Virus record (IMG/VR): IMGVR_UViG_3300006467_000155
Strand: one strand, 5' to 3'
Length of the DNA: 64,000 bases
Origin: an uncultured virus (IMG/VR IMGVR_UViG_3300006467_000155)
Lineage: Duplodnaviria > Heunggongvirae > Uroviricota > Caudoviricetes
Positions 1,770-64,000 of this stretch are shown here, in pieces; the first letter of the stretch is position 1; each line of letters begins with the position of its first letter. The position numbers and the translations under genes were made by a program. The notes under the pieces are model-generated. The model was given only the letters and a program-made list of their open reading frames with translations. It made no database searches and was not told where the DNA came from.

Positions 1770-1783
1770 TGACATTAATGTCA
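1770..1783. repeat. 14-bp palindrome copy (exact)
   Basis: TGACATTAATGTCA; supplies the TGA stop of 1781..2293. Confidence 0.95.
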
Positions 1784-2293
1784 CTTGATAAAGGGCAACA
1801 CCCGGGACAAGCGGATCAGGAAGGCCATCTTCTTGAGCGGCAATTCCTTCAGGAAGTCTTCTTGCTGCTTGGTCTCGATAGCGTGTCCCTTGTAGTTGTC
1901 CCGAACATACTTGATAGCCTCAACCGCCAGCGCGGCTTGGTTGGGCATCCAGTACTGAGACATGAAGCTCAGGAGGGTCATAGCCCCCATGAACAGACCG
2001 GTGCGGCCAATACCGCCCATGCAGCCCACGTACAGGCTACCGTCTTTCTTCAGGTAATAACGAGCTTTCTCCAAGCCCTTCATCATGTCTTCCGGCTCCG
2101 GCACCGAGAAGTCCCGGGTCGGAATGGCAACATCGTGGGGGAGGTCCATCAGTTCTTCGGCCATGCAGAAGCCCGGTAGGTCTTTGGGTCGATTACGGTA
2201 CGGGCCGCCGTAGATCATGCCCCGGACCTTACCGTCCGTGTACCGGATTCCCTTTAGGTCGCTTGTGCCGGGTGTTGCATCGAATCTTGCCAT
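1781..2293 (-). CDS. Dual-specificity/tyrosine (CX5R) protein phosphatase-like
   Basis: IPTRDFSVP acid loop, YVGCMGGIGRTG P-loop, YVRDNYKGHAIETKQQ. Confidence 0.85.
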   Translation of the reverse strand: MARFDATPGTSDLKGIRYTDGKVRGMIYGGPYRNRPKDLPGFCMAEELMDLPHDVAIPTRDFSVPEPEDMMKGLEKARYYLKKDGSLYVGCMGGIGRTGLFMGAMTLLSFMSQYWMPNQAALAVEAIKYVRDNYKGHAIETKQQEDFLKELPLKKMAFLIRLSRVLPFIK

Positions 2294-3459: not shown

Positions 3460-5580
3460 TTAGGAGAAGATTTGAAAAGCAAGTTTCTCCTCCTTGACTG
3501 GGTTCACCGGCTCAGCAATGGTCTTCCCATGGGCCTTCATCATGGCCTTCAGGGTATTGTACGTCTTGGTGTCACCCACCACGTTCTTGATGAATTCTTC
3601 ATCCGGTATGCCGTTTCCTGAGAGCAGGTCTTTCAGTGTGCCTGCGGCCTTTAGGAGCTTCACGTTCTCCGGGACTTTAAGGGTACTGACTTGCACCGTA
3701 CCCGGGAGCAGGGCCACCACTTCTCTGCCGGCTTCTCCCAGCAAGGTCATGTGGTGGTTGATCCAGTCCCGTTCCTCTTTGGTCGGGTTCTTACCCAACA
3801 TCTGAATCATCAACCTGTCTTCGGCATCCAGATTTGAAAAGGGGCCATCAAACTCGACATACAGGGTGCCAGTCACCTTCTCACCGAGGGCCCGCAACTC
3901 CTTCACAGGGTCTTCATTGAAGGTTCCTGTGCCAAGCCTCAGGCAGTAGTCCTTGGTCACCAGCAGTAGCCCTTCAGGTGGGTGGGCGTCCCCGCAGAGC
4001 AGTGACCCTGAGCCTTCTGTCAGAAGGTGAGCAGCATGGTAATTAACTTCTCCGGGTATCACTTCCTTGGCCCCAATCCAGACATTACCGGTGGAGCCAT
4101 CAATGGTGATCAGGTCACCTGACTGCACCTGTGTTCCGTCCCCCATGATCAGGGTTCCGTTGACAATGGCCAGTTCAGTGCACCCAACAACACACACCTT
4201 GTCCATGCCCCGGGCAACAACTGCCGCATGGCTGGTCAGGCCCCCGGTCTGGGTCAATATACCAACAGAGAGGTTCATAGCAACAATGTCATCAGGGGTG
4301 GTTTCTTTCCCAACCAGAATAGCCGGGTGACCCTCCTCCGAATTGATCTGCTTCACCTGATATTCCGTGAAGGCCACTCTGCCGGTAACAACCCCACCAC
4401 CAGCGGCAATACCGGTAGCCTGTGGCTTTCCTGCAGAGTCCTTGTTGATCGCGGGGGTCTTCAAAGCCAAGTACTGGGCCACAGTCACCCGGGTCAGAGC
4501 TTCCTCGGTGGTCAATACTCCCTCGCTCACCATGTCAGAGGCAATCCGGAAGGCCGCCTTGGCAGACCGTTTCCCGTTCCGACATTGGAGGATGTAGAGC
4601 TTGCCGGCTTGCACCGTGAACTCCACGTCTTGCATGTCCTTGTAGTACTCCTCCAACCGCATGGTGTGATCACAAAGTTCTTGGTAGGCCTCGGGGTTCC
4701 ACTTGTTCATCTGGTCGAGCGGGTCCGGGGTCCGGATGCCGGCCACTACGTCCTCACCCTGAGCGTTCACAAGGAACTCCCCTGTTATTACAGGGTCACC
4801 ATTGCTTGGGTTCCGGGAGAACAACACGCCAGTACAGGACTTGTCATTGAGGTTGCCGAATACCATGGACTGGATGTTGACCGCAGTGCCCCACTCATCG
4901 GGGTAGCCGTGCATTTCCCGGTAGGCTTTGGCCCGGTCACAGTTCCATGACTCGAACACCGCCGTGATCGCCCATTCCAACTGCTCAATAAAGGTGTCCG
5001 GGAATTCCGTGCTATGGGTCTGATAGACGATCTTGTAGCGCCCTATCAGGGTGTCTAGCTGGGCCACGGAAAGCTCATGATCATGGGTGACCTCGGCTGT
5101 TTTCTTCACTTCCCCCAAGGCACCTTCAAATTCTTCTTTAGGGATACCAAACACCACGTCACCCATCATTTGCATGAGGCGGCGATAGGAATCCAGTGCG
5201 GCCCGTTTACCAATGCGTTCCGCCCACTCAGGCAGTGACTCCGAAGTCAAGCCCACGTTCAATATGGTGTCCATCATACCCGGCATGGATACCCGGGCAC
5301 CCGAGCGAACACTAACCAGTGGGAAGTAGCCAAAGTGCTCCTTCAGGTCATTCAAGTGAATGTAGACTTCGTTCTTCAGCAGGTCTGTGACAACATCGTC
5401 ACCCTTACCAGAGTGCAGGTATTCATTGCAGACTTCCGTGGTGATCGTAAAGCCCGGGGGGATCGGTAGGTTCAGGTTGGCCATCTCTGCAAGGTTGGCA
5501 CCTTTGCCACCCAGCAGTTCACGCATTTCTGCGTTGCCTTCTGTTCCGAGCCCGGGGCCAAATGTGTAGGTTTTCTTCAT
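3460..5580 (-). CDS. ppdK: Pyruvate,phosphate dikinase-like protein (ATP-grasp + phospho-His domain, atypical short C-terminus)
   Basis: LLGGKGANLAEM, LVSVRSGARVSMPGMMDT, NAQGEDVVAGIRTP, QDVEFT, GGLTSHAAVVARG; likely start MKKTY at 5580. Confidence 0.9.
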   Translation of the reverse strand: MKKTYTFGPGLGTEGNAEMRELLGGKGANLAEMANLNLPIPPGFTITTEVCNEYLHSGKGDDVVTDLLKNEVYIHLNDLKEHFGYFPLVSVRSGARVSMPGMMDTILNVGLTSESLPEWAERIGKRAALDSYRRLMQMMGDVVFGIPKEEFEGALGEVKKTAEVTHDHELSVAQLDTLIGRYKIVYQTHSTEFPDTFIEQLEWAITAVFESWNCDRAKAYREMHGYPDEWGTAVNIQSMVFGNLNDKSCTGVLFSRNPSNGDPVITGEFLVNAQGEDVVAGIRTPDPLDQMNKWNPEAYQELCDHTMRLEEYYKDMQDVEFTVQAGKLYILQCRNGKRSAKAAFRIASDMVSEGVLTTEEALTRVTVAQYLALKTPAINKDSAGKPQATGIAAGGGVVTGRVAFTEYQVKQINSEEGHPAILVGKETTPDDIVAMNLSVGILTQTGGLTSHAAVVARGMDKVCVVGCTELAIVNGTLIMGDGTQVQSGDLITIDGSTGNVWIGAKEVIPGEVNYHAAHLLTEGSGSLLCGDAHPPEGLLLVTKDYCLRLGTGTFNEDPVKELRALGEKVTGTLYVEFDGPFSNLDAEDRLMIQMLGKNPTKEERDWINHHMTLLGEAGREVVALLPGTVQVSTLKVPENVKLLKAAGTLKDLLSGNGIPDEEFIKNVVGDTKTYNTLKAMMKAHGKTIAEPVNPVKEEKLAFQIFS

Positions 5581-5611
5581 CTTCCCCTCCGTGAATTTTT
5601 GGTGCAGTTCT

Positions 5612-5640
5612 AGTATCTCGCACCCCGGTACGTTTGTCAA
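5612..5640 (-). promoter_or_regulatory. sigma70-like promoter P2
   Basis: TTGACA-N17-GATACT upstream of the ppdK-like gene; no adjacent palindrome. Confidence 0.8.
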
Positions 5641-5882
5641 ACAGTTTCTTTCAGCTTGGCAAGGAATTCCTCAGGGGTTATGAGAACAACACCATTGGCC
5701 TCAGCCTTTCTGATCTTACTGGTGTTGCCGTGGCGGCCAGTGTCCCCAACCACCAAAATCTGGGTTCGTTCGGTGATTGACTTCTCTACGGTGTGGCCAT
5801 GGTCTTGGGCAACAGCTTCAAGGACAGCCCGGGTAACGTGCTCCCCATCCAATCTGAAAGTGCCAGTGAATGCAATGTTCAT
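5637..5882 (-). CDS. Stand-alone BRCT domain protein (NAD-ligase C-terminal type)
   Basis: IAFTG...TR...G....SIT..TQILVVG...SKIRKAEANGVVLITPEEFL. Confidence 0.8.
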   Translation of the reverse strand: MNIAFTGTFRLDGEHVTRAVLEAVAQDHGHTVEKSITERTQILVVGDTGRHGNTSKIRKAEANGVVLITPEEFLAKLKETV

Positions 5883-6046
5883 TGGGCGTTCCTCCGTGAG
5901 ATTTCTTCCACCAGCAAGCTCTTGTTGGTGAAGGCAGAAGGGCACACGTTTCTACGCATGTGCTTGGGGGTCTTCTCAATCAGGCGACCTAACCGAGCGT
6001 ACTCGGCTACCAGTTCTTCTCTTGTCCAATTCTTTAGGTTTTTCAT
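5879..6046 (-). CDS. Small hypothetical protein (55 aa, below the track cut-off)
   Basis: AAGGAGGG RBS, MKNLKNWTREELVAEY...; ATGA overlap with the BRCT gene. Confidence 0.6.
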   Translation of the reverse strand: MKNLKNWTREELVAEYARLGRLIEKTPKHMRRNVCPSAFTNKSLLVEEISRRNAQ

Positions 6047-7578: not shown

Positions 7579-8037
7579 TTACACCCAGTCCCGGGTGTTG
7601 TCGATTATCCGGAAATCAAATTCATCCCGGTCTGCCACCTCCTCAAGGAACCGGTAGTAGCCCCGCCCCTTGTGAGTCTTGCTACCCAATACTGCAGTCA
7701 TCCCTTCCAGCACCCCGAAGTAGCTCCCAACAACTATACACCCCTCGGTGTTCGTGTGGGCATTACCACCATGGAATAGGATATGGCTTCGATCTTTCAC
7801 ATCCATGACTTGGAAGGTGTCTCCGAAAGTCGGGCTTTCTTGGAAATTATAATCTGGGCTCTTTCGGCACCGAAGCGCCTTGTAGTCCCCAGCAGGAATG
7901 CAGGAGACGTAGGGCTTGTTGTCCCGCCAACGATCCTCCACAGTCAGGGCTATAGGGGTCTGTCGAAAAATCAGAACCCCAAAGGTGCCATGTACGTTAT
8001 CGAGTATTCTACGAAGAATCATGTCCGGGAAATTCAT
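7579..8037 (-). CDS. DUF5675-like protein, putative endolysin
   Basis: TFGVL, SCIPAGDY, HILFHGGN...TEGCIVVG; lies next to the holin. Confidence 0.7.
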   Translation of the reverse strand: MNFPDMILRRILDNVHGTFGVLIFRQTPIALTVEDRWRDNKPYVSCIPAGDYKALRCRKSPDYNFQESPTFGDTFQVMDVKDRSHILFHGGNAHTNTEGCIVVGSYFGVLEGMTAVLGSKTHKGRGYYRFLEEVADRDEFDFRIIDNTRDWV

Positions 8038-8039
8038 GG

Positions 8040-8699
8040 CTATATCCTCAGCGTGTGACCAATTCGTTGGGCAATCTTGACCAGATCGGTCTGGCTGTTA
8101 TCGACTTCCCCGTTCTCATCTATATGGGCGAACAGGTCATCATGCGGTGCCAGAAAATCCAGTCCCATCCACCCTTCAAGTTGGCTACGTGAATTCAGGA
8201 TGGGTATAGCCCGGAAGATCACTGTCCCCCGGTCTTTCAGCATTTGCTTCCAATGGTAATCGTGCAGGTCGTCCGTCCGCATCACCATGGAATCCCCCTG
8301 CACCAGCTTATGGAACAGGTGGGGTAGTTGGGTAACCAGAATCTCGGCCTTCTGTGGTCCGATGGTGGTCACACCTTCCCGCACCACTTCATGGGTGCAG
8401 GTCATGTTCAGTTGTGACACGTCATTGCTGTAATACGTGCCATTGGAGAATTGGTAGACGTAGGCCCGGTCTGCACCAGTTGCCAGCTTGGCTTCCGTCA
8501 ACAAGGTATTCACATTCAGCGCCGTGCTTATCTGCTCAGGCAAAGCGTTGTACTTCAGCCAGCGTCGAATCCGTTTGCTTACCTTGATGCTGATTTGGAT
8601 GATAGCCGCTGCTATGAAAGATGACACAGCAATCACAAACTCGTTCCAGAAGTTTGAAACGGCGGAGGTCACAGAATCCCACATAACTTTCCTCGTCAT
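8040..8699 (-). CDS. Putative holin (single TM + GAF-like soluble domain, T4 T-like architecture)
   Basis: One N-terminal hydrophobic helix, then ADRAYVYQF..N and GWMGLDF; position before the endolysin candidate. Confidence 0.55.
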   Translation of the reverse strand: MTRKVMWDSVTSAVSNFWNEFVIAVSSFIAAAIIQISIKVSKRIRRWLKYNALPEQISTALNVNTLLTEAKLATGADRAYVYQFSNGTYYSNDVSQLNMTCTHEVVREGVTTIGPQKAEILVTQLPHLFHKLVQGDSMVMRTDDLHDYHWKQMLKDRGTVIFRAIPILNSRSQLEGWMGLDFLAPHDDLFAHIDENGEVDNSQTDLVKIAQRIGHTLRI

Positions 8700-46712: not shown

Positions 46713-48373
46713 ATCAGAGTCAGGCAGTTTTTCCATGTCAGTGTCCCACGCCCCGTACAGCATGTCGGGCCACTTATGACCACAGGCCCATGTGTGTCCG
46801 GGTTCCAGCTTAACAAATGCCCTATCCCCGGTGTCATTTGGTGCCTCACTCATAGGTGCTTCCTGTCCGTCCCGATGATCGTGGGTCATATAGAATCGCT
46901 CAAACCCGACAATGGTGCCTGTTCCATGTGGGACTTTCACCCGGTCACCTTTCTTGTATTCAGAGAGTTTCATCAGTCTTCCTTCTTGGGTTATCGGTAA
47001 GCTCGCTTAGGAAGCTCTACTTCCTCGACCCGCAACACCGTGTCCACCTTAGGGTTCAGGTTGTCGTCCGCAAGCTCAAACACCGGGGCCATATAATAGA
47101 GTTCCTGTATCTCGCACTGCTCTGCTATGGCGTTCCAGATTTTGTGGTAACCCCCCGGCTGCGTTCCTTGTGGGGTTTTCCAGCCGTTCAGGAAGCCAGT
47201 GTAGAGGATGCTCCGAAACACCGGGTTGTGAGGGCTGTGCGCCACGTCCACGATGTAATAACTGTTCTCTTTCCACCCGCCTTCAGGCTGGAAGATGGTT
47301 GGCTTGGTCATGCCGGCGTCCACCGGGGTTTCGTGTTTCTTGAGGGTACGGGTCATTCTGCCTCCTACAGGCTCAGGTGAAGTTGGGTGTTCTGCTCAAT
47401 GTCTTTCTTGAGCATGTCGGCGTACAGGCCATAAGACTGGGCCACTTCAATGATCTTGCCCCCGTAAAGCCTGAAGTACTCCACGTCATAGAGGTCTTGG
47501 TCGGTCAGCATGATCTTTATGTGACTGACCTTCCCCTTCTCCGGGTGCTTTCCTTTGATCTTGAATTGCACCCCTTTCTTGATCCCTACGAAAGCAGTGG
47601 CCCCGGTCATGGCAATGAAGCGGGTGCCTCCGAGTTGTTCAACGATGGTTTGGGCTATCTGGGTATCGCTCACGGTCCTCTCCTTAGCTTACCGGTGTGA
47701 ATCTTGAGGCGTGTGCCCCGATTTCTTTGCCCTCGTCGTCTCGCACGATCACGAATGGACGATCCGGGAATATGCCTTCCTGCCAGTCCACCACTTCGTA
47801 CACCTTGCCAGTGGTCAGTTGGTAGTCATACCCGTTCATGCAGCGCAGATGGGTCACGCCTTTCAGGGTGGTCACCCCGCTCATGGAGGGTTGTTTCAGA
47901 ATTGCTTTCTCTAACGCTGGGCTGAGTAGCATTGCTCTCTCCTTAGTTTTCCCACTCTACCGGTATGCGGGGGCCATGATTTTCTCTTGGTGGGAGTCTC
48001 ACAGTGGAAGCCCGGTTCTGCTCCACACTTAGGGCAAGTTACCTGCCTCACTGCGTCACTGGATGCCCACCCTGTCATCGGCCCCCCAACAATGTGTCTC
48101 GGGGTTGGATTGTCTGGGGTCCAACCTATGTACTTAATAGCCATGGCTCTCTCCTTAGGCTGCCATCTGGGTCATGTAGTGAACCGGGCGCTCATAGATG
48201 CCGCACTCACTGCGGTACACGCTGATCATCCGCATCTTGCTTCCGTCTTGGACGAATACCCGGCAGGTCTCGCCGTAGTTGACGTTCTCCCCCAGTGGCC
48301 AGAGACCGACCAGTTCTTCGGAGGCCAGAGCTTCGTTAAGGGTTTGGAACCAGTTGCGTTTGGATTCTTTCAT
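46692..48373 (-). other. Run of six small hypothetical genes (46692..46973, 46991..47356, 47365..47673, 47684..47932, 47911..48144, 48155..48373)
   Basis: Contiguous minus-strand ORFs with RBSs downstream of P7. Confidence 0.6.
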
Positions 48374-56363: not shown

Positions 56364-56392
56364 AGTATCGTATACCCCTACTAATTTGTCAA
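56364..56392 (-). promoter_or_regulatory. sigma70-like promoter P9
   Basis: TTGACA-N17-GATACT. Confidence 0.85.
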
Positions 56393-57102: not shown

Positions 57103-57131
57103 AGTATCGCACACGTTTGCCCGTTTGTCAA
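57103..57131 (-). promoter_or_regulatory. sigma70-like promoter P10
   Basis: TTGACA-N17-GATACT. Confidence 0.85.
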
Positions 57132-57151: not shown

Positions 57152-57565
57152 TCAACTGACGAGCATCAACAGCTTCTTGTAGGTCTCCTGCTTCAACTGG
57201 GCCTTTACTTCCGGGGACACGATGATCTTACCGTCATCCCGCTTGGTGCCCGTAGCGATCTTGGCGTCATTCTCGTCTTGGACGATATTGAATACCTTGT
57301 CCGGGTCCAGCCCCATGGCGATCAGGGTTCCGTAGGAGATCACCAGCTTGTCCGCCAACTCCTTGGCCAGATGAGCCCGGTCCTTCGCACTGGTGCCCTC
57401 ACTCTCGGCATAGTTGTGCAGGGCCTCGATCATTTCCATGTGCTCCTCGGTCTCCAACCGGTGCCTCAGGCACAGCACATCAAAGGGCATGGGCTCATTG
57501 GCCGGTAGGTCTACCTGTTGCCCGCCCATGTTCATGAACTGCTTTACCCGTTGTGCGTTAGTCAT
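57152..57565 (-). CDS. MazG-superfamily NTP pyrophosphohydrolase (PRA-PH-like)
   Basis: VKQF...GQ, LR.RL..EE..E, KELAD.L..SYG, N.AK....KRDDGKI. Confidence 0.8.
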   Translation of the reverse strand: MTNAQRVKQFMNMGGQQVDLPANEPMPFDVLCLRHRLETEEHMEMIEALHNYAESEGTSAKDRAHLAKELADKLVISYGTLIAMGLDPDKVFNIVQDENDAKIATGTKRDDGKIIVSPEVKAQLKQETYKKLLMLVS

Positions 57566-57568
57566 TGC

Positions 57569-58243
57569 TTAACCCCTCAGCCTTAGTATGTGAAATAGCT
57601 CCGCATAGGAGCATCCTGATTCCACGCCCCGCAAACGGGCCAATGCCTTGGCACCTTCCAGAGAGATTTGCTCGTTCTCCCCCCTCATCTGCGATTCATA
57701 GCATTTCAGTGCCTCTAACTTTAGGTCCAACTGCTCGCTTATGTCCACATACAATCCTCCACGGAAGGCACTCATGTCTGAGCCCGGGCCCCAGCCTGTC
57801 AGTGGGTACTCATAGGCGGCGATCATCCTTGGGTTGTGCTTGGCAGGGCTTGGTCTCGTACTGGCGACACAGGCCTCCCAGACTGTCCGGTGATCCTGAT
57901 GCGCTGATGGCAGTGGAATCAATACCTCGTCTGGCTTGTAGTGTTCCTGTATCTCATCCAACTGCTTCACCAAGTCACTCATCGGGTGCAGGTGGAGCTT
58001 ACCGTCCATGTTCAGGGTCAGGGTGTGGTAGCCCGTCACCCCCAGACATTCGAGAGCCCTTCGGAACTCGCTAATTCTGTCCTCATGGGATACCTCAGTG
58101 CTGTTATGCAGAAACTTGATGGAGGACACCGTAGCCACGACCACGATGACTTCCCACCCTTGCTGTATCTTCTTCGCCATGTAACCGCCGACGCCCAATT
58201 CAGAGTCATCACAATGCGGCGACACCACCATCAGCAAACTCAT
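57569..58243 (-). CDS. PIG-L/LmbE family N-deacetylase
   Basis: SPHCDDSELGVGG, R..E...A, HQDH, YE, K..AL.CY.SQ. Confidence 0.92.
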   Translation of the reverse strand: MSLLMVVSPHCDDSELGVGGYMAKKIQQGWEVIVVVATVSSIKFLHNSTEVSHEDRISEFRRALECLGVTGYHTLTLNMDGKLHLHPMSDLVKQLDEIQEHYKPDEVLIPLPSAHQDHRTVWEACVASTRPSPAKHNPRMIAAYEYPLTGWGPGSDMSAFRGGLYVDISEQLDLKLEALKCYESQMRGENEQISLEGAKALARLRGVESGCSYAELFHILRLRG

Positions 58244-60128
58244 TCTTCTTCTCCTGTTTCTTGGATACCTGCTTCACAGACTCAGGCATGTTGTTCGGGT
58301 TGATTTTGTGCCGTGCCCATAGCTCGGTTCTTGTCGTTAAGCCATGAACGACACCAGCCAGTGCATCGGATATGTCCTTACTTGAGTGGGCCGGGTGGTC
58401 CACCTTCCCTTTCTTGAAGTCGTATTCAATGGAGAGCAATTCTTTCCGCAGCTTCGCGTGCTGGGGCAGGATTATGCGCCTGTCCCCGAGGGCAGACTTC
58501 AGCATGGCATAGGGCCGAATATCTGTGTCCATGGATTTCTGGCCCGTCAGGAAGCCCCCCTGCCGCAATACCTGAATGCTGTCTACGGACTGGTAGGAAT
58601 CGAAGGACACCCACTTGATGTTGACCTTCAAGGCCTGCTTCAGCTTGTAGAGGATGCTCCGTATCTTGTGGTACTCGATCTCCCCATTGGGCGGCGGGCT
58701 CACTTCCAGCACTCCATCCACAATGATGTTTGGCCAGTACTCGATACAGTCCCCCCGGTCCAGCTCCACGAACTTATCAATGTACCCAATCACCACACCG
58801 GTACTGTCACCGGTCACCGACAAGTCGATGTGGCACCACCGGGGCTCGTCAAGGTTCTTGACCTTGGTCGGGTACAGCAAGAGCTTACTGGTTACGAAGT
58901 CAACTTGTTCACGGCTGAACACGCTGGCGTGCTTATGGGCCATGGCGTCCGTCACCGAATCTGTGTCTGAGATATACGGGCTGGCGGCCAGAGTCGAGAT
59001 GCCGGCAATCTCACGGAGAGAGTTGAGGATGTCCTTCTTGAAGTCATCCCGGTACTCCACAGGGATGTGCCACACCATGTGCTCGTTCTCCGGGTCGATC
59101 TTCTCGTCCGGCGTGATCAGGTGTGGCTTCCGGTACTCGTCGCCAATGAAGATCGGGAACGTGTTGCCTGAGTAGGTGCCTTTCGGGGCAATCTCCCACA
59201 CACGCTTGTCATAGACGTAAATGTCAGACTTCCCATACAGGGCGATCTGTTCCTTGGCCTGCTGTTCCTTAATGTCAGTGAACTGGCCCGGGTAGCGTTT
59301 CGAGGAGACCAGACAGAGCATCCCGTACACCTTACCGCCCTTGGTGAAACGAGACTTCCGGCGACGAGCAATCGAGTTGTAGAGGGCCCACGCTTGGTCG
59401 AACACACCACCGTCCACACTGCTCTTGGAGTCCTCCACCACGGCCATGTAGTTCACCTCATCCAGTACGCCACCCATGACGTTCTGACCAATGGCTGCAG
59501 TCTCCTGCCCGGACAGGGGCACCACTTCTATGCGATCCGGGAACACGATTCTGGATTCCAAGTCCTTGTCGAACGGGTAGACCTCGGTGAAGTAGTGGCT
59601 CCTCTCCAATAGGGACCGGAACCGGTTGTACTCCAACTGCTTGGCATGGCTCGCACTGAGGGACTGGAACACAAAGAGGATTTCGTGACTTGGGTCAAGA
59701 TCGAAGAACCGGTGCGGGTCTTTCATGCAACTGAGCACATACAGGTTATACGCGATCAGGTAGTGGGCACAGGTGGTCTTACCAGAGCCGATACCTCCGG
59801 TCAGCACGGTCTCCACGTAATCCCCAGTCGTCATCTCCTTCAGTGCTTCCATGACCACCGGGTACACGGTGTCCTTGGCATTCAGGTAGAACGGGTCTTC
59901 AATAAAGGTCTGAATATCTACAGGCTGGTATTTGAACGCGGTAATCTGCTCAAACACCCCGGTCTTCCCGGTCAGCATCCCCATGATGATGTTCTCGTAC
60001 CATGAGAGCCTGTGCTTGGGGCTGTCAATGGTCGCCCCTATGTTGTAGATGGTCTCGCCCTTCCGACCCAGTACCTTCATCAGGACTTTGTGTGCCTGTT
60101 CGTTACTGGTCAGGGTTATCTGTTGCAT
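58209..60128 (-). CDS. terL: Terminase large subunit
   Basis: Walker A GGIGSGKT, Walker B GVLDE, nuclease HIDLS...D and KDISDALAG; likely ATG at 60128. Confidence 0.88.
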   Translation of the reverse strand: MQQITLTSNEQAHKVLMKVLGRKGETIYNIGATIDSPKHRLSWYENIIMGMLTGKTGVFEQITAFKYQPVDIQTFIEDPFYLNAKDTVYPVVMEALKEMTTGDYVETVLTGGIGSGKTTCAHYLIAYNLYVLSCMKDPHRFFDLDPSHEILFVFQSLSASHAKQLEYNRFRSLLERSHYFTEVYPFDKDLESRIVFPDRIEVVPLSGQETAAIGQNVMGGVLDEVNYMAVVEDSKSSVDGGVFDQAWALYNSIARRRKSRFTKGGKVYGMLCLVSSKRYPGQFTDIKEQQAKEQIALYGKSDIYVYDKRVWEIAPKGTYSGNTFPIFIGDEYRKPHLITPDEKIDPENEHMVWHIPVEYRDDFKKDILNSLREIAGISTLAASPYISDTDSVTDAMAHKHASVFSREQVDFVTSKLLLYPTKVKNLDEPRWCHIDLSVTGDSTGVVIGYIDKFVELDRGDCIEYWPNIIVDGVLEVSPPPNGEIEYHKIRSILYKLKQALKVNIKWVSFDSYQSVDSIQVLRQGGFLTGQKSMDTDIRPYAMLKSALGDRRIILPQHAKLRKELLSIEYDFKKGKVDHPAHSSKDISDALAGVVHGLTTRTELWARHKINPNNMPESVKQVSKKQEKKNEFADGGVAAL

Positions 60129-60792
60129 CGTCAACTGCACTCCATTCTGCGTCTTCGGCATCCACGGTGTCTGTCCACCCCAACAGGCCAAGCTCCTTCA
60201 AGGCCTGCTCGGTCGCCTTACTGATCTTGTCCTGCTGATCCTTCTCGAATTCCAAGTTCTGGTAGCCACGCTCTGTGGTCTCGTGAGTCACCCGGGCGTC
60301 CAGTCTGTGCGCTGCCCGGTGGAGAATGCCGGTCTCCAATTGCAGTTTACCCAGATCATTCAGGGTATCTTTGAGAAGGCGTACTTCCATGTTCAGTTGC
60401 TTGGAGAGGGTTGGCATCTTCTCCTCGAAATCCAAGCCTTTCTTCAAACGCTTCTTCTGGATGCCAATCAGTTCGGCCATCTCTTGCGCCACGTCCAATT
60501 GCTTGTCGAGCTTGTCCAGTATCTCGGTGCGCTTCTCCGCGTCCGGGGAGTCCTTTAGCAGAGCCATCTGGTTGCTCAGCTCGGATTCCTTGTACCGGGC
60601 CAACTGCTTGACCAGTGTGTGGTGCTTCACGTCCTGAAACTCGCCCCACTCCTCCTGTATCAGGCGAGCTACCAGTACAGGCCCATCACCCCGGAGCATC
60701 CGGTACTCAATGGTCGCCATACGCTCAGGGCCAAGCCCCCGGAGGCGAGTGTAGGCTGTCGTCTTTCTCGCTTTATTGGGTTTCTTGGCCAT
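60103..60792 (-). CDS. Putative terminase small subunit
   Basis: Helical, N-terminal HTH-like plus coiled coil, directly upstream of terL. Confidence 0.6.
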   Translation of the reverse strand: MAKKPNKARKTTAYTRLRGLGPERMATIEYRMLRGDGPVLVARLIQEEWGEFQDVKHHTLVKQLARYKESELSNQMALLKDSPDAEKRTEILDKLDKQLDVAQEMAELIGIQKKRLKKGLDFEEKMPTLSKQLNMEVRLLKDTLNDLGKLQLETGILHRAAHRLDARVTHETTERGYQNLEFEKDQQDKISKATEQALKELGLLGWTDTVDAEDAEWSAVDDATDNPDQ

Positions 60793-60794
60793 GC

Positions 60795-61634
60795 TCAGAA
60801 CTCAGCGTCTAGGAAGTCCAGTGTCGGAGTTTCCATGTGATCCGGAATCTCCACCTCGGGGCAGGCCGCAATGATCTCCTGCAGGTTGTCGGTCCCGGTT
60901 TTCTCAAGCTGCAGGATCAGTGCCTCCATGATGCTGTCCATGGCCCGGTTCTCGTTCTTGCAAGTGCCGGCCAACTTGAGGAAGGCAGACTTCTGCTTCG
61001 GGCTCATGCGTAACCAGATAGAATCCTTCCCACCGAAATCTACAATCATGTAGTTGTAGTCCAGCGTGTCGCCGTACTCAGCAAACATCTTGTTGAGCAG
61101 GGTCGCCAGATCATCAATGGTCTTGATCTCCTTACTGGCTTCTTTGAATTCCTGCTTCATTTCTGGGGGCAGGGACTCACCGGTCTGTTTCACCAGCCGC
61201 TTGAATTCCTCCTCAGAGGCAAAACCCATCATCTCCTGAAGCACATCGTCCTTGTACTTCTCGCTCAGTTCATCGTAGAGCTTGGTGAACTTCTGTGGGG
61301 AAATCTGACCATGGATGGTGTTCAGCTTCACCATCTGGAACTTCTCAAGGTCTTCCCCCAACTGGGCGTTATCCACGATGGTACAAGGCACCTTGGTAAA
61401 CCCGATCAGCTTGCCAACCTCCAAGCGGTGGTGGCCACCCACGGCACGATAGGTTCCATCGCCCAAGTCCACGGCATAGATGGGGTCAATGAAGCCCCCC
61501 TCCTCGATGCTGTCATAGAGCAGGTTGAACTGGCCGTCCGTCATTTCGTTGGGGTTGTCTTCGTTCGGGATCAGCTTCGTTACGTCAATATCTTCCCGGC
61601 GCAGTTGCTTCGTGCGCTCAATCGCCTTACTCAT
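60795..61634 (-). CDS. ParB/Srx N-terminal domain protein
   Basis: IDV.KL.PN..NPN, I...GF.DPI, Y....GHHR. Confidence 0.85.
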   Translation of the reverse strand: MSKAIERTKQLRREDIDVTKLIPNEDNPNEMTDGQFNLLYDSIEEGGFIDPIYAVDLGDGTYRAVGGHHRLEVGKLIGFTKVPCTIVDNAQLGEDLEKFQMVKLNTIHGQISPQKFTKLYDELSEKYKDDVLQEMMGFASEEEFKRLVKQTGESLPPEMKQEFKEASKEIKTIDDLATLLNKMFAEYGDTLDYNYMIVDFGGKDSIWLRMSPKQKSAFLKLAGTCKNENRAMDSIMEALILQLEKTGTDNLQEIIAACPEVEIPDHMETPTLDFLDAEF

Positions 61635-63135
61635 GGTTCTTCCCCTTCACGTTGCCCATTGCTCCGGGGGCTACCCCGGTATCCTTCAGTCCGTGTTTTG
61701 ACATTAATGTCAAACGTACACTGTTCCAATCCGTCGAATAGACCAGCCGGTACTTGGAGCGGATGCCTGTGGTAGCTTTCTCCAAGAACGTGGTCACGTC
61801 CCCATAGGTCAGGGCCATGGCCTCCACCGCTTCAAAGATAGTGGGCTGTCCTCCCTCCAAGAATTCCGGAAGGCGGTCCACCAGATCGTTCTGGGTGGTG
61901 TTGTTCTCACCCCACTCTTTCAGGTCTTTCTTCCACTGCTCTACTTGGGTATCGACAATCTCCGGGGTGTACTCCTTGTTGCGCTCCAAGAGCAGGGGCA
62001 GGAAGTGGTTACGGGACCAGCCCACGAACTTTTTGTACTGGGTTGCGTAATCATCGTAGAAGGCTTTGATGACTCCATAAGCCTCCTTGGCGTTCTTGAT
62101 GAAGAATGGGTATTCCTCCCCCAACGAGGCCACGGACCACTCGCACTTATACACGGCAATCGGCAGGCCCATGGTCAGTGGTTCAATCACCGACATGGAG
62201 TAGTCCTCCTCGACGCTCAGGAACACCCCTACGTCTGATTCTTCTTTCACAATGCGCCAGAATTCTTCCCGGGGAGCCGGGACCACGTTCACGAACTCAG
62301 GGACTTTGATGCCAGCCCCCACGCCCTTGGAGGCCGATGTCAGCACACAGTTCACCGGATGCTTGTCGTTGTTCCTCATGATCCAGTGCTTCGACATAAT
62401 ATCCAGTATCTCCTCCATGCGGTGGCCTTTGACCAACCGGCCCGAGAAGGAAATGGTAAACGGCTTCTTGCGGTTGATGGTGGCTTCCACGGTCTTCTTG
62501 CTCTTGAACTGAACATCGTGGAACAGGGACGGGGTGGCTTCGACTATGTTGTTGCCAATCTTCCGGGCGCTCGACGGGCTAAAGTGTTTCTTCGCCAGCT
62601 CCATGATCTTGGCTTTCTCCCAATAGGCACAGATCGCCACCTTGTCAGCAGTCAGATACCCCAACATGGTCAGGTAGTCTGAGTAGTCTCCCGGTGGCGT
62701 CTGCACAAATCCCTTGAAGCTCATCATCGGCATGTCTTCTAGGATCACGATCTTCCGGCACCACTTCAGCCGTTGGGCTCTCGGCTTGCAGCAGATCATC
62801 CGGTACAGGGGAACCATGGCGGACTTGTTCGTTACCAGAATATCCCAGTCCCAGTAGTCGCCATCAAAGGCAATCACGTTCTCAAGGTCAAAGGCCAGTC
62901 GGCTGTACTGCTTGTACCGGTCCAGCTCCTCATCCATCTGCAGGGGGATATACATGATCCGGTCACTCTGGGGCAGCCAGTTCAGTTCCTCGGCAGGCAG
63001 ATCGTTGGGGACAATCCAGTAGAAATAGGCGTCATCGTACTTCTCTGACAGGTGTTCAAATACCCTTACCATCTTGATCGTTGAGGCACACCTTGAGGGT
63101 AAAGTCGTATAGATGGGGTCAAGCAGTATCTTCAT
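61627..63135 (-). CDS. GT-B fold glycosyltransferase-like protein
   Basis: MKILL start, ISFSGRL.K, SDVGVFLS.EEDYSMSVIE.LTMGLP. Confidence 0.7.
   Translation of the reverse strand: MKILLDPIYTTLPSRCASTIKMVRVFEHLSEKYDDAYFYWIVPNDLPAEELNWLPQSDRIMYIPLQMDEELDRYKQYSRLAFDLENVIAFDGDYWDWDILVTNKSAMVPLYRMICCKPRAQRLKWCRKIVILEDMPMMSFKGFVQTPPGDYSDYLTMLGYLTADKVAICAYWEKAKIMELAKKHFSPSSARKIGNNIVEATPSLFHDVQFKSKKTVEATINRKKPFTISFSGRLVKGHRMEEILDIMSKHWIMRNNDKHPVNCVLTSASKGVGAGIKVPEFVNVVPAPREEFWRIVKEESDVGVFLSVEEDYSMSVIEPLTMGLPIAVYKCEWSVASLGEEYPFFIKNAKEAYGVIKAFYDDYATQYKKFVGWSRNHFLPLLLERNKEYTPEIVDTQVEQWKKDLKEWGENNTTQNDLVDRLPEFLEGGQPTIFEAVEAMALTYGDVTTFLEKATTGIRSKYRLVYSTDWNSVRLTLMSKHGLKDTGVAPGAMGNVKGKNHE
61699..61712. repeat. 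14-bp palindrome copy (exact, intragenic)
   Basis: Encodes LTLMS. Confidence 0.95.
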
Positions 63136-63366
63136 GTACTCTCGCCTTTTTGGTTGGTTTCCTTCCCCCAAGGCGTGTATTGCGGGGCCTCAGGGCAATC
63201 GGTTCAAATCACTCAGGGTGTCTAGGATACTTTAGACTCCCTAGACATTGAAAGGACACTTTCAAAGGAGCATAGGACATTTCTGGCGGGATTATAAGTC
63301 AGGAGGGGAAACTTTTTGTCTATAGGCTATTGGGGGATTTCCTTTTCCCCCAAAAATATCAATGAG

Positions 63367-64000
63367 TCAGTCGTCTTTGGGTAACGGTGTCCATGGGACT
63401 ACAGTGTCGTCCTTCAGCAGATAGTCGAACAACAGGGTTCTGCATCTCACCGCCCCCAACTTGAACACCCAGTCTATCCAACTGACGGTCGGGTCGATCA
63501 TGGGGAACTTGCCTTCCCTGTAGTGGACTTTGAACTTCTGATAGAACAGTTCGATGTTTCGTTTCTCGAAGGGCTCAGGGTCAAAGTAGTCATCCATGGA
63601 TTTCAGGCCTTGGATGTATCCTTGGTTATCTGTTTCCTCCACAAGTTGAGCTATCCACTCACAGGCGTTATCTGGTCTTTCCCCCACCAACATGGTGCTT
63701 GGGTGTATCCGGGCAGTGAGTTTCAGGACTCTGGCCATCAGGGTATAACTGGCGTACCCCACATCCGCAAAGGTCATGGTCTTGTAGTGGGGCAAGATGC
63801 TATCCCCCCACTCAATCAGGTAGGGCATCAGCTCGTCGTAGTACCGGGTCTTTCGGTAGGTCAGTTCCAGTGTGGTGAGTAACTTCCCCCACCAATCCGG
63901 AAAGTCCTTCAGGAAGGTTTCATTGAAGTTCTTTCTGCTACCCCCACTCTTGTCGAGGGGAATGGAGATTACCTGCAGGCCGTTCTTCGTCCCCAAGGTG
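63367..64000 (-). CDS. WbqC-like family protein (5' end outside the window)
   Basis: ISIP...W..K....L..TY.KT.YY, YI.G....DY.D...F....I.L.YQ.F, P.VSWID.VF..G. Confidence 0.7.
   Translation of the reverse strand, partial: TLGTKNGLQVISIPLDKSGGSRKNFNETFLKDFPDWWGKLLTTLELTYRKTRYYDELMPYLIEWGDSILPHYKTMTFADVGYASYTLMARVLKLTARIHPSTMLVGERPDNACEWIAQLVEETDNQGYIQGLKSMDDYFDPEPFEKRNIELFYQKFKVHYREGKFPMIDPTVSWIDWVFKLGAVRCRTLLFDYLLKDDTVVPWTPLPKDD

Follow-up and report, generated by a model that had tools for sequence, protein, structure and literature searches.

Gene order at the terminase locus

The 64-kb stretch of the uncultured Caudoviricetes virus IMGVR_UViG_3300006467_000155 (IMG/VR) analyzed here, hereafter referred to as the window, is tiled by 98 open reading frames (ORFs), every one of them on the minus strand, and represents part of the genome of a siphovirus-type phage, in which the tail and head genes occupy about 6–42 kb and small genes 42–57 kb. 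The subject of this work is the region 57152–64000, in which genes coding for a glycosyltransferase (GT), a deacetylase and a WbqC-like protein are found together with a ParB-like gene and the terminase genes. Its seven genes are listed below in the order of transcription, followed by a promoter-like site:

63367..64000, minus strand: WbqC-like protein, C-terminal 210 aa (Pfam PF08889); the gene is cut by the window end
61627..63171, minus strand: GT-B, GT4-like glycosyltransferase carrying an additional, helical region at the C-terminus, assigned by fold
60795..61634, minus strand: protein of the ParB-N (ParB/Srx) family containing the motif GGHHR (phrog_26387)
60103..60792, minus strand: putative small terminase subunit (TerS), 229 aa, assigned by position only
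58209..60191, minus strand: large terminase subunit (TerL), assigned by homology to annotated TerL proteins and the Walker A motif
57569..58243, minus strand: PIG-L/LmbE-family N-deacetylase, assigned by Pfam and metal-binding motifs
57152..57565, minus strand: MazG-like (all-alpha) nucleoside triphosphate pyrophosphohydrolase (PRA-PH, phrog_671)
57103..57131, minus strand: promoter-like site TTGACA-17-GATACT in the 109-nt gap directly downstream of the MazG-like gene

The GT and ParB-like genes overlap by 8 nt, with the ParB start lying over the GT stop, and a 2-nt gap separates the ParB-like gene from the putative TerS gene, which in turn overlaps the TerL gene by 26–89 nt depending on which of the TerL start candidates (60191, 60161 or 60128) is chosen. 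The TerL and PIG-L genes overlap by 35 nt, the PIG-L and MazG-like genes are 3 nt apart, and the gap between the WbqC-like and GT genes is 195 nt. These junctions agree with an earlier note made from the sequence of the window, which had placed seven minus-strand genes here, overlapping or abutting from the GT gene to the MazG-like gene, with the WbqC-like gene just upstream.

Folds and families of the module proteins

The GT gene most likely starts with the ATG at 63135, resulting in a protein of 502 aa, the full ORF being 514 aa. The protein has no match in Pfam, Glycos_transf_1 (PF00534) included, and only phrog_30253 was found among PHROGs (3e-6); the homologue from the Arthrobacter phage reaches 22.8 bits with PF00534, under the cut-off of 26.4. 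As the sequence is too divergent for Pfam, its membership among the GT4-like enzymes rests on the fold. The AlphaFold (AF2) model, with a predicted local distance difference test (pLDDT) score of 91, is of the GT-B/GT4-like type with two Rossmann-like domains, and its best Foldseek matches are MshA (2e-10), PglA and BshA. In VIA-align comparisons the model is closest to BshA (Z 21.2, 346 residues aligned, root-mean-square deviation (rmsd) 4.6), WbnH (Z 21.1) and PglA (Z 20.6), with phage enzymes (the phage HY126 GT, Z 17.5, and T4 alpha-glucosyltransferase, Z 14.8) and protein-glycosylating GT4-like enzymes (SdgB, 7ec1, Z 16.4, and GtfA, 4pqg, Z 15.4) farther away. The last ~100 residues, mostly helical, lie outside all structural matches. 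GT4-like retaining glycosyltransferases possess an E-x7-E motif in the C-terminal domain, and the stretch EDYSMSVIE, residues 322–330 of the 514-aa ORF, has this form and is located within a conserved block, its second Glu being invariant in 34 homologues (E318 of P0001).

The deacetylase matches PIG-L/LmbE PF02585 with 65 bits (cut-off 28.2), and its nearest solved structure is the LmbE-related 2ixd (3.6e-10). LmbE deacetylases bind metal through H-x-D-D and H-x-D-H motifs, and the PHCDD (residues 9–13) and HQDH (residues 115–118) stretches of the phage protein align with AHADD and HPDH of 2ixd. Its score with the BshB1 equivalog TIGR04001 is 68.1 bits, under the cut-off of 182.5, and the protein is therefore considered a relative of BshB1 rather than an orthologue. 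A deacetylase 36% identical to that of the window is encoded by ORF81 of phage V-YDF132 (L004:4857-5534), where it lies in the same sugar cassette; it has been described as part of a lysin/endolysin (PMC9413028; here and below, reports identified by PMC number or DOI are cited for individual passages).

To read the WbqC-like gene in full length, as well as the rest of the region past position 64000, a twin contig of 35,116 bp from IMG/VR was used, which was found via a 52-base string at the window end and shares 99.97% identity with the window along 10,052 bases. The complete protein contains 253 aa (L005:9873-10634) and matches PF08889 with 94.2 bits, the fragment present in the window giving 80.2 bits (cut-off 21.3). 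For its AF2 model (pLDDT 95), the sole Foldseek match in the PDB at E ≤ 0.001 is BshC (4wbd), the putative cysteine ligase of the bacillithiol pathway, to which it was aligned by VIA-align over 227 of 252 residues (Z 14.8, rmsd 3.4), with class I LysRS (Z 11.3), GluRS (Z about 8) and MshC (Z 6.9) as lower matches. As modelled, the protein has a BshC-like Rossmann-type catalytic fold resembling that of class I aminoacyl-tRNA synthetases, and is a putative amino acid:amino-sugar ligase. It was not filed as BshC, being of half the length and lacking sequence-level homology: phmmer against PDB sequences gave no BshC match, and with its 253 aa, compared to ~540 aa in BshC including a coiled-coil dimerisation domain, it does not have the full BshC architecture. 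Phage V-YDF132 carries two WbqC-like paralogues.

With a GT resembling BshA and MshA, an LmbE-type deacetylase and a WbqC-like protein resembling BshC, these genes are most naturally read as coding for an amino sugar that is first deacetylated and subsequently aminoacylated. By analogy, the three enzymes would parallel BshA, BshB and BshC in N-acetylhexosamine (HexNAc) transfer, N-deacetylation and N-aminoacylation, respectively. A deacetylated or re-acylated, possibly aminoacylated, amino sugar was also what the earlier note had guessed, and the guess is supported at the level of fold and motifs; amino-sugar chemistry of this kind is regarded as probable.

The identities proposed earlier for the neighboring genes stood up to different degrees. 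Family, fold or homology confirm the WbqC-like, GT-B, TerL, PIG-L and MazG-like assignments. The ParB-like protein scores 24.8 bits with Pfam ParB_N, just (1.5 bits) below the cut-off of 26.3, but matches phrog_26387 at 1e-86; its homologues, 177 in number at E ≤ 1e-10, include proteins with 45–72% identity which carry precomputed PF02195. TerS has only its position in favor, as no match was found for it in Pfam, PHROGs or NCBIfam; it shows 27–39% identity to the ORF located between the ParB-like and TerL genes in relatives. TerL has the Walker A sequence GGIGSGKT and gave tblastn matches in 361 phage records, the best of which are annotated TerL genes with 48–52% identity over 82–96% of the length; the best relatives are the Stenotrophomonas phages DLP3, DLP5 and Summit, SIO-2-like Vibrio phages, and Rhizobium and Rhodobacter phages. 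The MazG-like protein matches PRA-PH with 31.6 bits (cut-off 21.3) and phrog_671 at 2e-14, and is not conserved in relatives, since no tblastn match to its gene was detected in 12 related loci at 1e-3.

The promoter-like site downstream of the MazG-like gene may mark the end of a co-transcribed block. An identical site, TTGACA-17 nt-GATACT, is present at 56364–56392, also on the minus strand, both sites being located in intergenic gaps just past the MazG-like gene. Such sites are not more frequent in the window than in shuffled sequences (4 vs 4.6), which makes the promoter call a weak one.

Distribution and layout of the module in other phages

Upstream of the full-length WbqC-like gene, the twin contig contains a gene coding for a class I S-adenosylmethionine-dependent methyltransferase of 203 aa, and then one for a 391-aa SWIM zinc-finger/MgsA_C-like protein. 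The latter has no match in PHROGs, only SWIM and a weak MgsA_C match in Pfam, and Atlas structure matches with TM values of 0.31 at most. Farther upstream there are two unconserved ORFs followed by recombination and replication genes, which code for RuvC, RecA, an exonuclease, several helicases and an ATPase of the AAA type; the ORFs coding for 329 aa and 151 aa (L005:6509-7498 and 7628-8083) were dropped as candidate module parts because no relative conserves them. The hydroxymethylase, aminotransferase or nucleotide-sugar genes for which the earlier note had pointed beyond position 64000 are absent from the twin contig, with about 9 kb of the ~93.5-kb genome (the contig of the GT's database record measures 93,514 bp) lying outside the two sequences.

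The GT has 36 homologues at E ≤ 1e-5 in a large protein collection; the eight longest of their source contigs are 45–96 kb in length, that is, phage-sized, and most of the others are short. Matches by tblastn were found in just nine phage records. Across Vibrio, Stenotrophomonas, Rhizobium and Arthrobacter phages the GT retains 22–50% identity along its entire length or the greater part of it, and the same four genera are the hosts given in the records of module carriers. For comparison, 13 distinct phages were used, all selected for carrying the GT: the window phage, seven IMG/VR loci, DLP3, RHph_TM16, KarBoss, V-YDF132 and the Arthrobacter phage DanielleIgnace. An eighth IMG/VR locus (L015) was left out, being incomplete and having nearly the same matches and identities as L014.

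The PIG-L deacetylase is found in 12 of the 13 phages (it is absent from the RHph_TM16 locus), as is the ParB-like protein (absent from locus L017), and 12 phages possess an MgsA_C-like protein with or without SWIM, the thirteenth being L014, the sequence of which starts too late to tell. The MgsA_C-like proteins form two sequence families, which are bridged by gp90 of the Arthrobacter phage in iterated searches. WbqC-like proteins are encoded by ten phages, the RHph_TM16 locus being one of those in which none was found. A methyltransferase is likewise present in ten, in eight of them of class I according to Pfam or jackhmmer and in the other two, DLP3 (‘Erm’) and KarBoss, of a different family. 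Genes coding for a PglF/WcaG-type dehydratase and a DegT/WecE aminotransferase occur in relatives without WbqC and in some with it, which suggests that the sugar has been diversified while the GT was kept.

DLP3_099 (L001:3511-4191), published as a functional erythromycin-resistance methyltransferase (‘Erm’), sits within the sugar cassette, flanked by the aminotransferase and GT genes, and a clear homologue occupies the same cassette position in KarBoss (L003:7231-7917; 1e-130 in a local search). The primary role of this protein may be sugar tailoring. HNH homing-endonuclease genes were also seen inside the module, between the methyltransferase and WbqC-like genes in L010 (L010:8541-9017) and between the ParB-like and TerL genes in L013 (L013:12435-12878).

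The GT and ParB-like genes overlap or abut in six of the 13 phages, have one ORF between them in five and are apart in two, which makes the ParB-like gene adjacent to the GT gene, with no more than one intervening ORF, in 11 phages. Even in DanielleIgnace, an otherwise unrelated phage, they overlap by 4 nt, with the module at the genome end and the terminase genes, TerL being split, at the genome start. ParB, TerS and TerL always form one unit. Of the 12 deacetylase genes, nine are found on the GT side of the terminase genes, five of these directly adjoining the GT gene, and only those of the window phage, L010 and L011 follow TerL; L012 has its entire cassette downstream of TerL. With the deacetylase behind TerL in only three phages, a cluster with the terminase embedded in it is a lineage-specific layout. 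The earlier description of the terminase as embedded in the sugar cluster thus holds true for the window phage, whereas elsewhere the module is mostly just beside the terminase. In general it is a conserved and mobile module which adjoins the terminase at the boundary between the replication and terminase genes, and the joint recurrence of its families in 13 phages is more than expected by chance. It is apparently without a published description in the literature searched, which did not extend to Dataset S10 of PMC13229309 or to the supplement of the bioRxiv GT preprint.

Elsewhere in the window, a protein encoded at 3460–5640 (minus strand) matches positions 2–521 of the 865 of pyruvate, phosphate dikinase (PPDK), having the ATP-grasp and phospho-histidine domains and no phosphoenolpyruvate/pyruvate domain, with ~200 aa at the C-terminus without an assigned match. 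Beside it there are DSP/PTP-like phosphatase genes (3–659 and 1781–2293, minus strand) and a gene for a conserved 343-aa protein, and the whole set recurs in DLP3, RHph_TM16, V-YDF132, L014 and G003. Glucan-water dikinases and rifampicin phosphotransferases phosphorylate a polymer or a metabolite, and by analogy the PPDK-like set could do so as well; a link to the sugar module may or may not exist. The small genes of the window include those for a small BRCT-domain protein of 102 aa (5637–5945, minus strand) and a phage zinc-finger protein (47911–48144, minus strand).

Acceptor of the sugar and comparison with known systems

The GT and its module occur in phages that infect Gram-negative bacteria as well as in one infecting an actinobacterium, and an acceptor shared across such different cell envelopes is suggestive of DNA or of something encoded by the module itself. 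Phage DNA is considered the best single explanation, with a chance that falls a little short of even. The ParB-like and MgsA_C-like proteins belong to two DNA-associated families kept in the module, which suggests DNA. Clustering of ParB, GT and terminase genes with phage DNA-modifying enzymes, which the earlier note had given as established, is in print (PMC13229309, section 12): the domains commonest beside phage 5mYOX genes are GT (31%), ParB (27%) and terminase (19%), and phage ParB homologues were reported to activate thymine dioxygenases on double-stranded DNA (PMC13229309). For phage DNA arabinosyltransferases, two of which are marked as experimentally confirmed, the top structural matches listed are BshA (3mbo), MshA and SPS (6kih) (PMC13326640, Table 1), and the structural neighbors of the window GT are those of the enzymes listed there; the DNA glycosyltransferases GT94 and GT53 are also said to resemble BshA, MshA and PglH (bioRxiv 10.1101/2023.12.21.572611). 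Nucleotide-pool genes are interleaved with the module, namely the MazG-like gene in the window, a dCTP-deaminase-like gene between the GT and ParB-like genes in L014, and NT5C in L012. A clear ThyX gene is located directly before the WbqC-like gene in L017 (L017:4712-5548; 1e-34), a weak ThyX match of 29.6 bits is given by gp107 of DLP3 directly after TerL (L001:9983-10876), and none was found in the window or in the related genome G003. In G003, a dihydrofolate reductase gene is translationally coupled to an upstream ORF of 372 aa without a family match (L021:5397-6898), where a thymidylate synthase would be expected.

In the pathway envisaged, the GT would move a HexNAc from a UDP-sugar to the acceptor, the sugar probably being N-acetylglucosamine (GlcNAc) in the window phage and 4-amino-4,6-dideoxy-HexNAc in relatives with the PglF-like dehydratase and the DegT aminotransferase. 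The deacetylase, the family and motifs of which are clear, would then free the 2-amine, which the WbqC/BshC-like enzyme might re-acylate, using an amino acid in activated form; methylation of an amine or a hydroxyl would be the task of the methyltransferase. The acceptor would most likely be replicated phage DNA prior to packaging, to which the ParB-like and MgsA_C-like proteins could bring the enzymes, and the outcome would be an amino-sugar hypermodification hindering host nucleases.

Several observations weigh against DNA as the acceptor, for which the earlier note had argued. ThyA, Tet_JBP and TGT were each searched for in five related records, four of which are complete genomes, and no ThyA (PF00303), no Tet_JBP (PF12851), even at E ≤ 10, and no TGT was detected in any of the five; it should be mentioned that divergent 5mYOX enzymes are reported to escape PF12851 (PMC13229309). 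When the cassettes were scanned with Pfam, no oxygenase was found, with about 9 kb of the window phage genome lying outside the available sequence; the complete 85.4-kb relative G003, for which 119 ORFs were called, gave none either in the 86 ORFs scanned or in 22 further ones of its module region. An enzyme known to form a glycosylatable base is thus not among the genes seen, and DNA modification is a prediction from gene content. The ParB-like gene always accompanies TerS and TerL and belongs to a larger family than the GT (177 members at E ≤ 1e-10 vs 36 at E ≤ 1e-5), so it may be a mere packaging or partition protein. As for the coupling of the modification to packaging proposed in the earlier note, it is not supported beyond the proximity of the genes: the deacetylase gene is past TerL in only three phages, and the L012 cassette is entirely downstream of TerL.

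The enzyme trio, by analogy, also mirrors the small-molecule pathway of BshA, BshB and BshC, which counts against DNA and for synthesis, in the infected cell, of an aminoacyl-glucosaminide similar to bacillithiol or mycothiol or of a compound resembling aminoglycosides, with a possible role in redox control, detoxification or interference with host defence. The stepwise parallel with that pathway (PMC5790435) speaks for such a product, and so do the small acceptors of the enzymes structurally closest to the GT. Despite that, the GT family was encountered solely in phage records and in contigs whose short length does not allow placing them, the extra C-terminal region of the GT is absent from BshA and MshA, and the tight link with the ParB-like and MgsA_C-like proteins is left without explanation. 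Moreover, WbqC is absent from three of the 13 phages and genes for sugar-diversifying dehydratases and aminotransferases are common, which fits an exposed glycan better than a cofactor. A small-molecule product is given a low probability.

The acceptor could also be a protein: an amino sugar attached to a virion protein or to a phage protein encoded by the module, then deacetylated and re-acylated, might serve stability, adhesion or shielding. Glycosylation of virions by phage GTs is known in mycobacteriophages, the protein-glycosylating GtfA and SdgB are among the structural matches of the GT, and the module is directly upstream of the late genes. At the same time, the packaging genes differ among carriers, as DanielleIgnace with its split TerL differs from the 85–100 kb proteobacterial phages, and a common protein acceptor is therefore not obvious. 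None of 54 window ORFs, capsid and tail included, has a Ser/Thr-rich tail, the maximum being a Ser + Thr fraction of 0.47 within 30 aa in a 782-aa protein of the tail region, and we know of no precedent for LmbE-type deacetylation of protein-linked GlcNAc. Glycosylation of a protein, which for virion proteins is the one alternative named in the earlier note, is regarded as improbable; the small-molecule alternative and the one discussed next are additions to it.

Conversion of the host envelope, in which the lipopolysaccharide (LPS), the capsule or some other glycan on the surface of infected cells or lysogens would be altered so as to block superinfection, is close to what the authors of the DLP3 and DLP5 papers proposed, namely membrane/LPS modification (PMC7326821, PMC5834331), and DLP5 is reported to persist as a phagemid (PMC5834331). 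According to the Pfam descriptions, O-antigen clusters are where WbqC, DegT and PglF-like proteins are typically encoded. It is hard, nevertheless, to square host-specific surface acceptors with a GT that is 22–50% identical across four host genera, and Pfam and PHROG scans of the cassettes, made without prediction of membrane segments, revealed no flippase, polymerase or Gtr-type family. The genes are located in the lytic replication-to-packaging block, overlap the terminase genes and are not moron-like. An envelope acceptor is held to be very unlikely.

The same two papers report that DLP3 DNA is resistant to 15 restriction enzymes (PMC7326821) and DLP5 DNA to 32 of 36 (PMC5834331), which would be in line with modified DNA. 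Ten of the 15 enzymes, though, have no sites in the DLP3 genome and XbaI has one, so the published resistance of DLP3 reflects mostly missing sites, a point against DNA as the acceptor. SmaI, ClaI, EcoRI and NdeI were reported not to cut DLP3 DNA (PMC7326821), and their sites number 68, 18, 7 and 4, respectively; the failure of SmaI and ClaI hints at modification. All three genomes examined have lost six-base palindromes: 25 of the 64 six-base palindromes are absent from the window (~1.6 in order-3 Markov simulations), 25 from DLP3 and 27 from G003. The loss is all-or-none, the remaining palindromes of the window occurring near expected counts, and the lost sets differ between related phages: CTGCAG is found 47 times in the window and never in G003 or DLP3, and CCWGG once in the window, once in DLP3 and 597 times in G003. 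Such a pattern resembles the effect of restriction pressure specific to each host. The reading that the avoidance of palindromes speaks against modified DNA was rejected, since phages with modified DNA used as controls show it too: M6, the modification of which we take to be 5-NeOmdU, is without 31 of the 64 palindromes in 50 kb, and 9g is without 13. Thymidine hypermodification has been described for M6 DNA (PMC8989533) and archaeosine G+ for 9g DNA (PMC6884629).

For DNA as the acceptor, the proposal can be worded more fully: a hexosamine on phage DNA would be N-deacetylated and then N-aminoacylated and/or methylated on the polymer to give a cationic or zwitterionic glycan, on an acceptor formed or reached without a ThyA homologue or TET/JBP dioxygenase, with the ParB-like and MgsA_C/SWIM-like proteins as DNA-handling parts. 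In this complete form it is put forward tentatively and is rather unlikely to hold in every part. Literature searches found no described amino-sugar DNA modification in these phages and no account of the module, in agreement with the earlier note, which had not recognised the chemistry as described.

If the acceptor is DNA, this would be an undescribed hypermodification class combining sugar and amino-acid chemistry, without a recognisable base-hydroxylating enzyme, in cultured Stenotrophomonas, Vibrio, Rhizobium and Arthrobacter phages, some of which are considered for therapy or aquaculture, with a bearing on restriction and CRISPR evasion, sequencing artefacts and phage engineering. The BshC-like WbqC protein would then be the first of the WbqC family for which a substrate is defined, and could hint at which activated amino acid BshC uses. 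Through its resemblance to BshC, the WbqC family, so far without a known function, acquires one that can be tested, which also bears on how bacillithiol synthesis is completed. As for DLP3 and DLP5, the published claim of ‘heavily modified DNA’ is based largely on enzymes without sites in the genome and needs re-testing in any case.

Among known systems, phage sugar hypermodifications of DNA are represented by glucosyl-5-hydroxymethylcytosine in T4, arabinosyl-5-hydroxycytosine in RB69 and Acinetobacter phage DLP3, and the 5mYOX-plus-GT pathways. They share with the module a GT-B/GT4-like transferase and sugar-tailoring genes near replication, ParB and terminase genes, as well as the BshA/MshA/SPS structural neighbors. 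Unlike the module, in which neither was found, they use a ThyA homologue or a TET/JBP dioxygenase to provide the hydroxyl acceptor, and in the literature searched no described system was found that deacetylates and re-acylates a DNA-bound sugar. The ParB-dependent phage thymine dioxygenases (PMC13229309) are similar in having a ParB homologue directly beside a putative DNA-modifying enzyme near the terminase, but the partner here is a glycosyltransferase and not a 5mYOX.

The bacillithiol and mycothiol pathways (BshA-B-C and MshA-B-C) are like the module in GlcNAc transfer by a GT4 enzyme, deacetylation by an LmbE-family enzyme and amino acid addition by an enzyme resembling class I aminoacyl-tRNA synthetases, and differ from it in that the latter is a phage module with a methyltransferase, ParB-like and MgsA_C-like partners and a GT with an extra C-terminal region; the BshC reaction is stated never to have been reconstituted (PMC5790435). 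Finally, GT4, WbqC and LmbE occur together in bacterial operons of the order proSx-GT4-WbqC-lmbE-tRNA(ProX)-murG (PMC10404621, Fig. 2 legend). There they are accompanied by a paralogue of prolyl-tRNA synthetase dedicated to the operon and by a tRNA, unlike in the phage module, no tRNA genes being found in the window or in eight related loci. The presence of the same three families side by side in both suggests a shared pathway which involves an amino acid.

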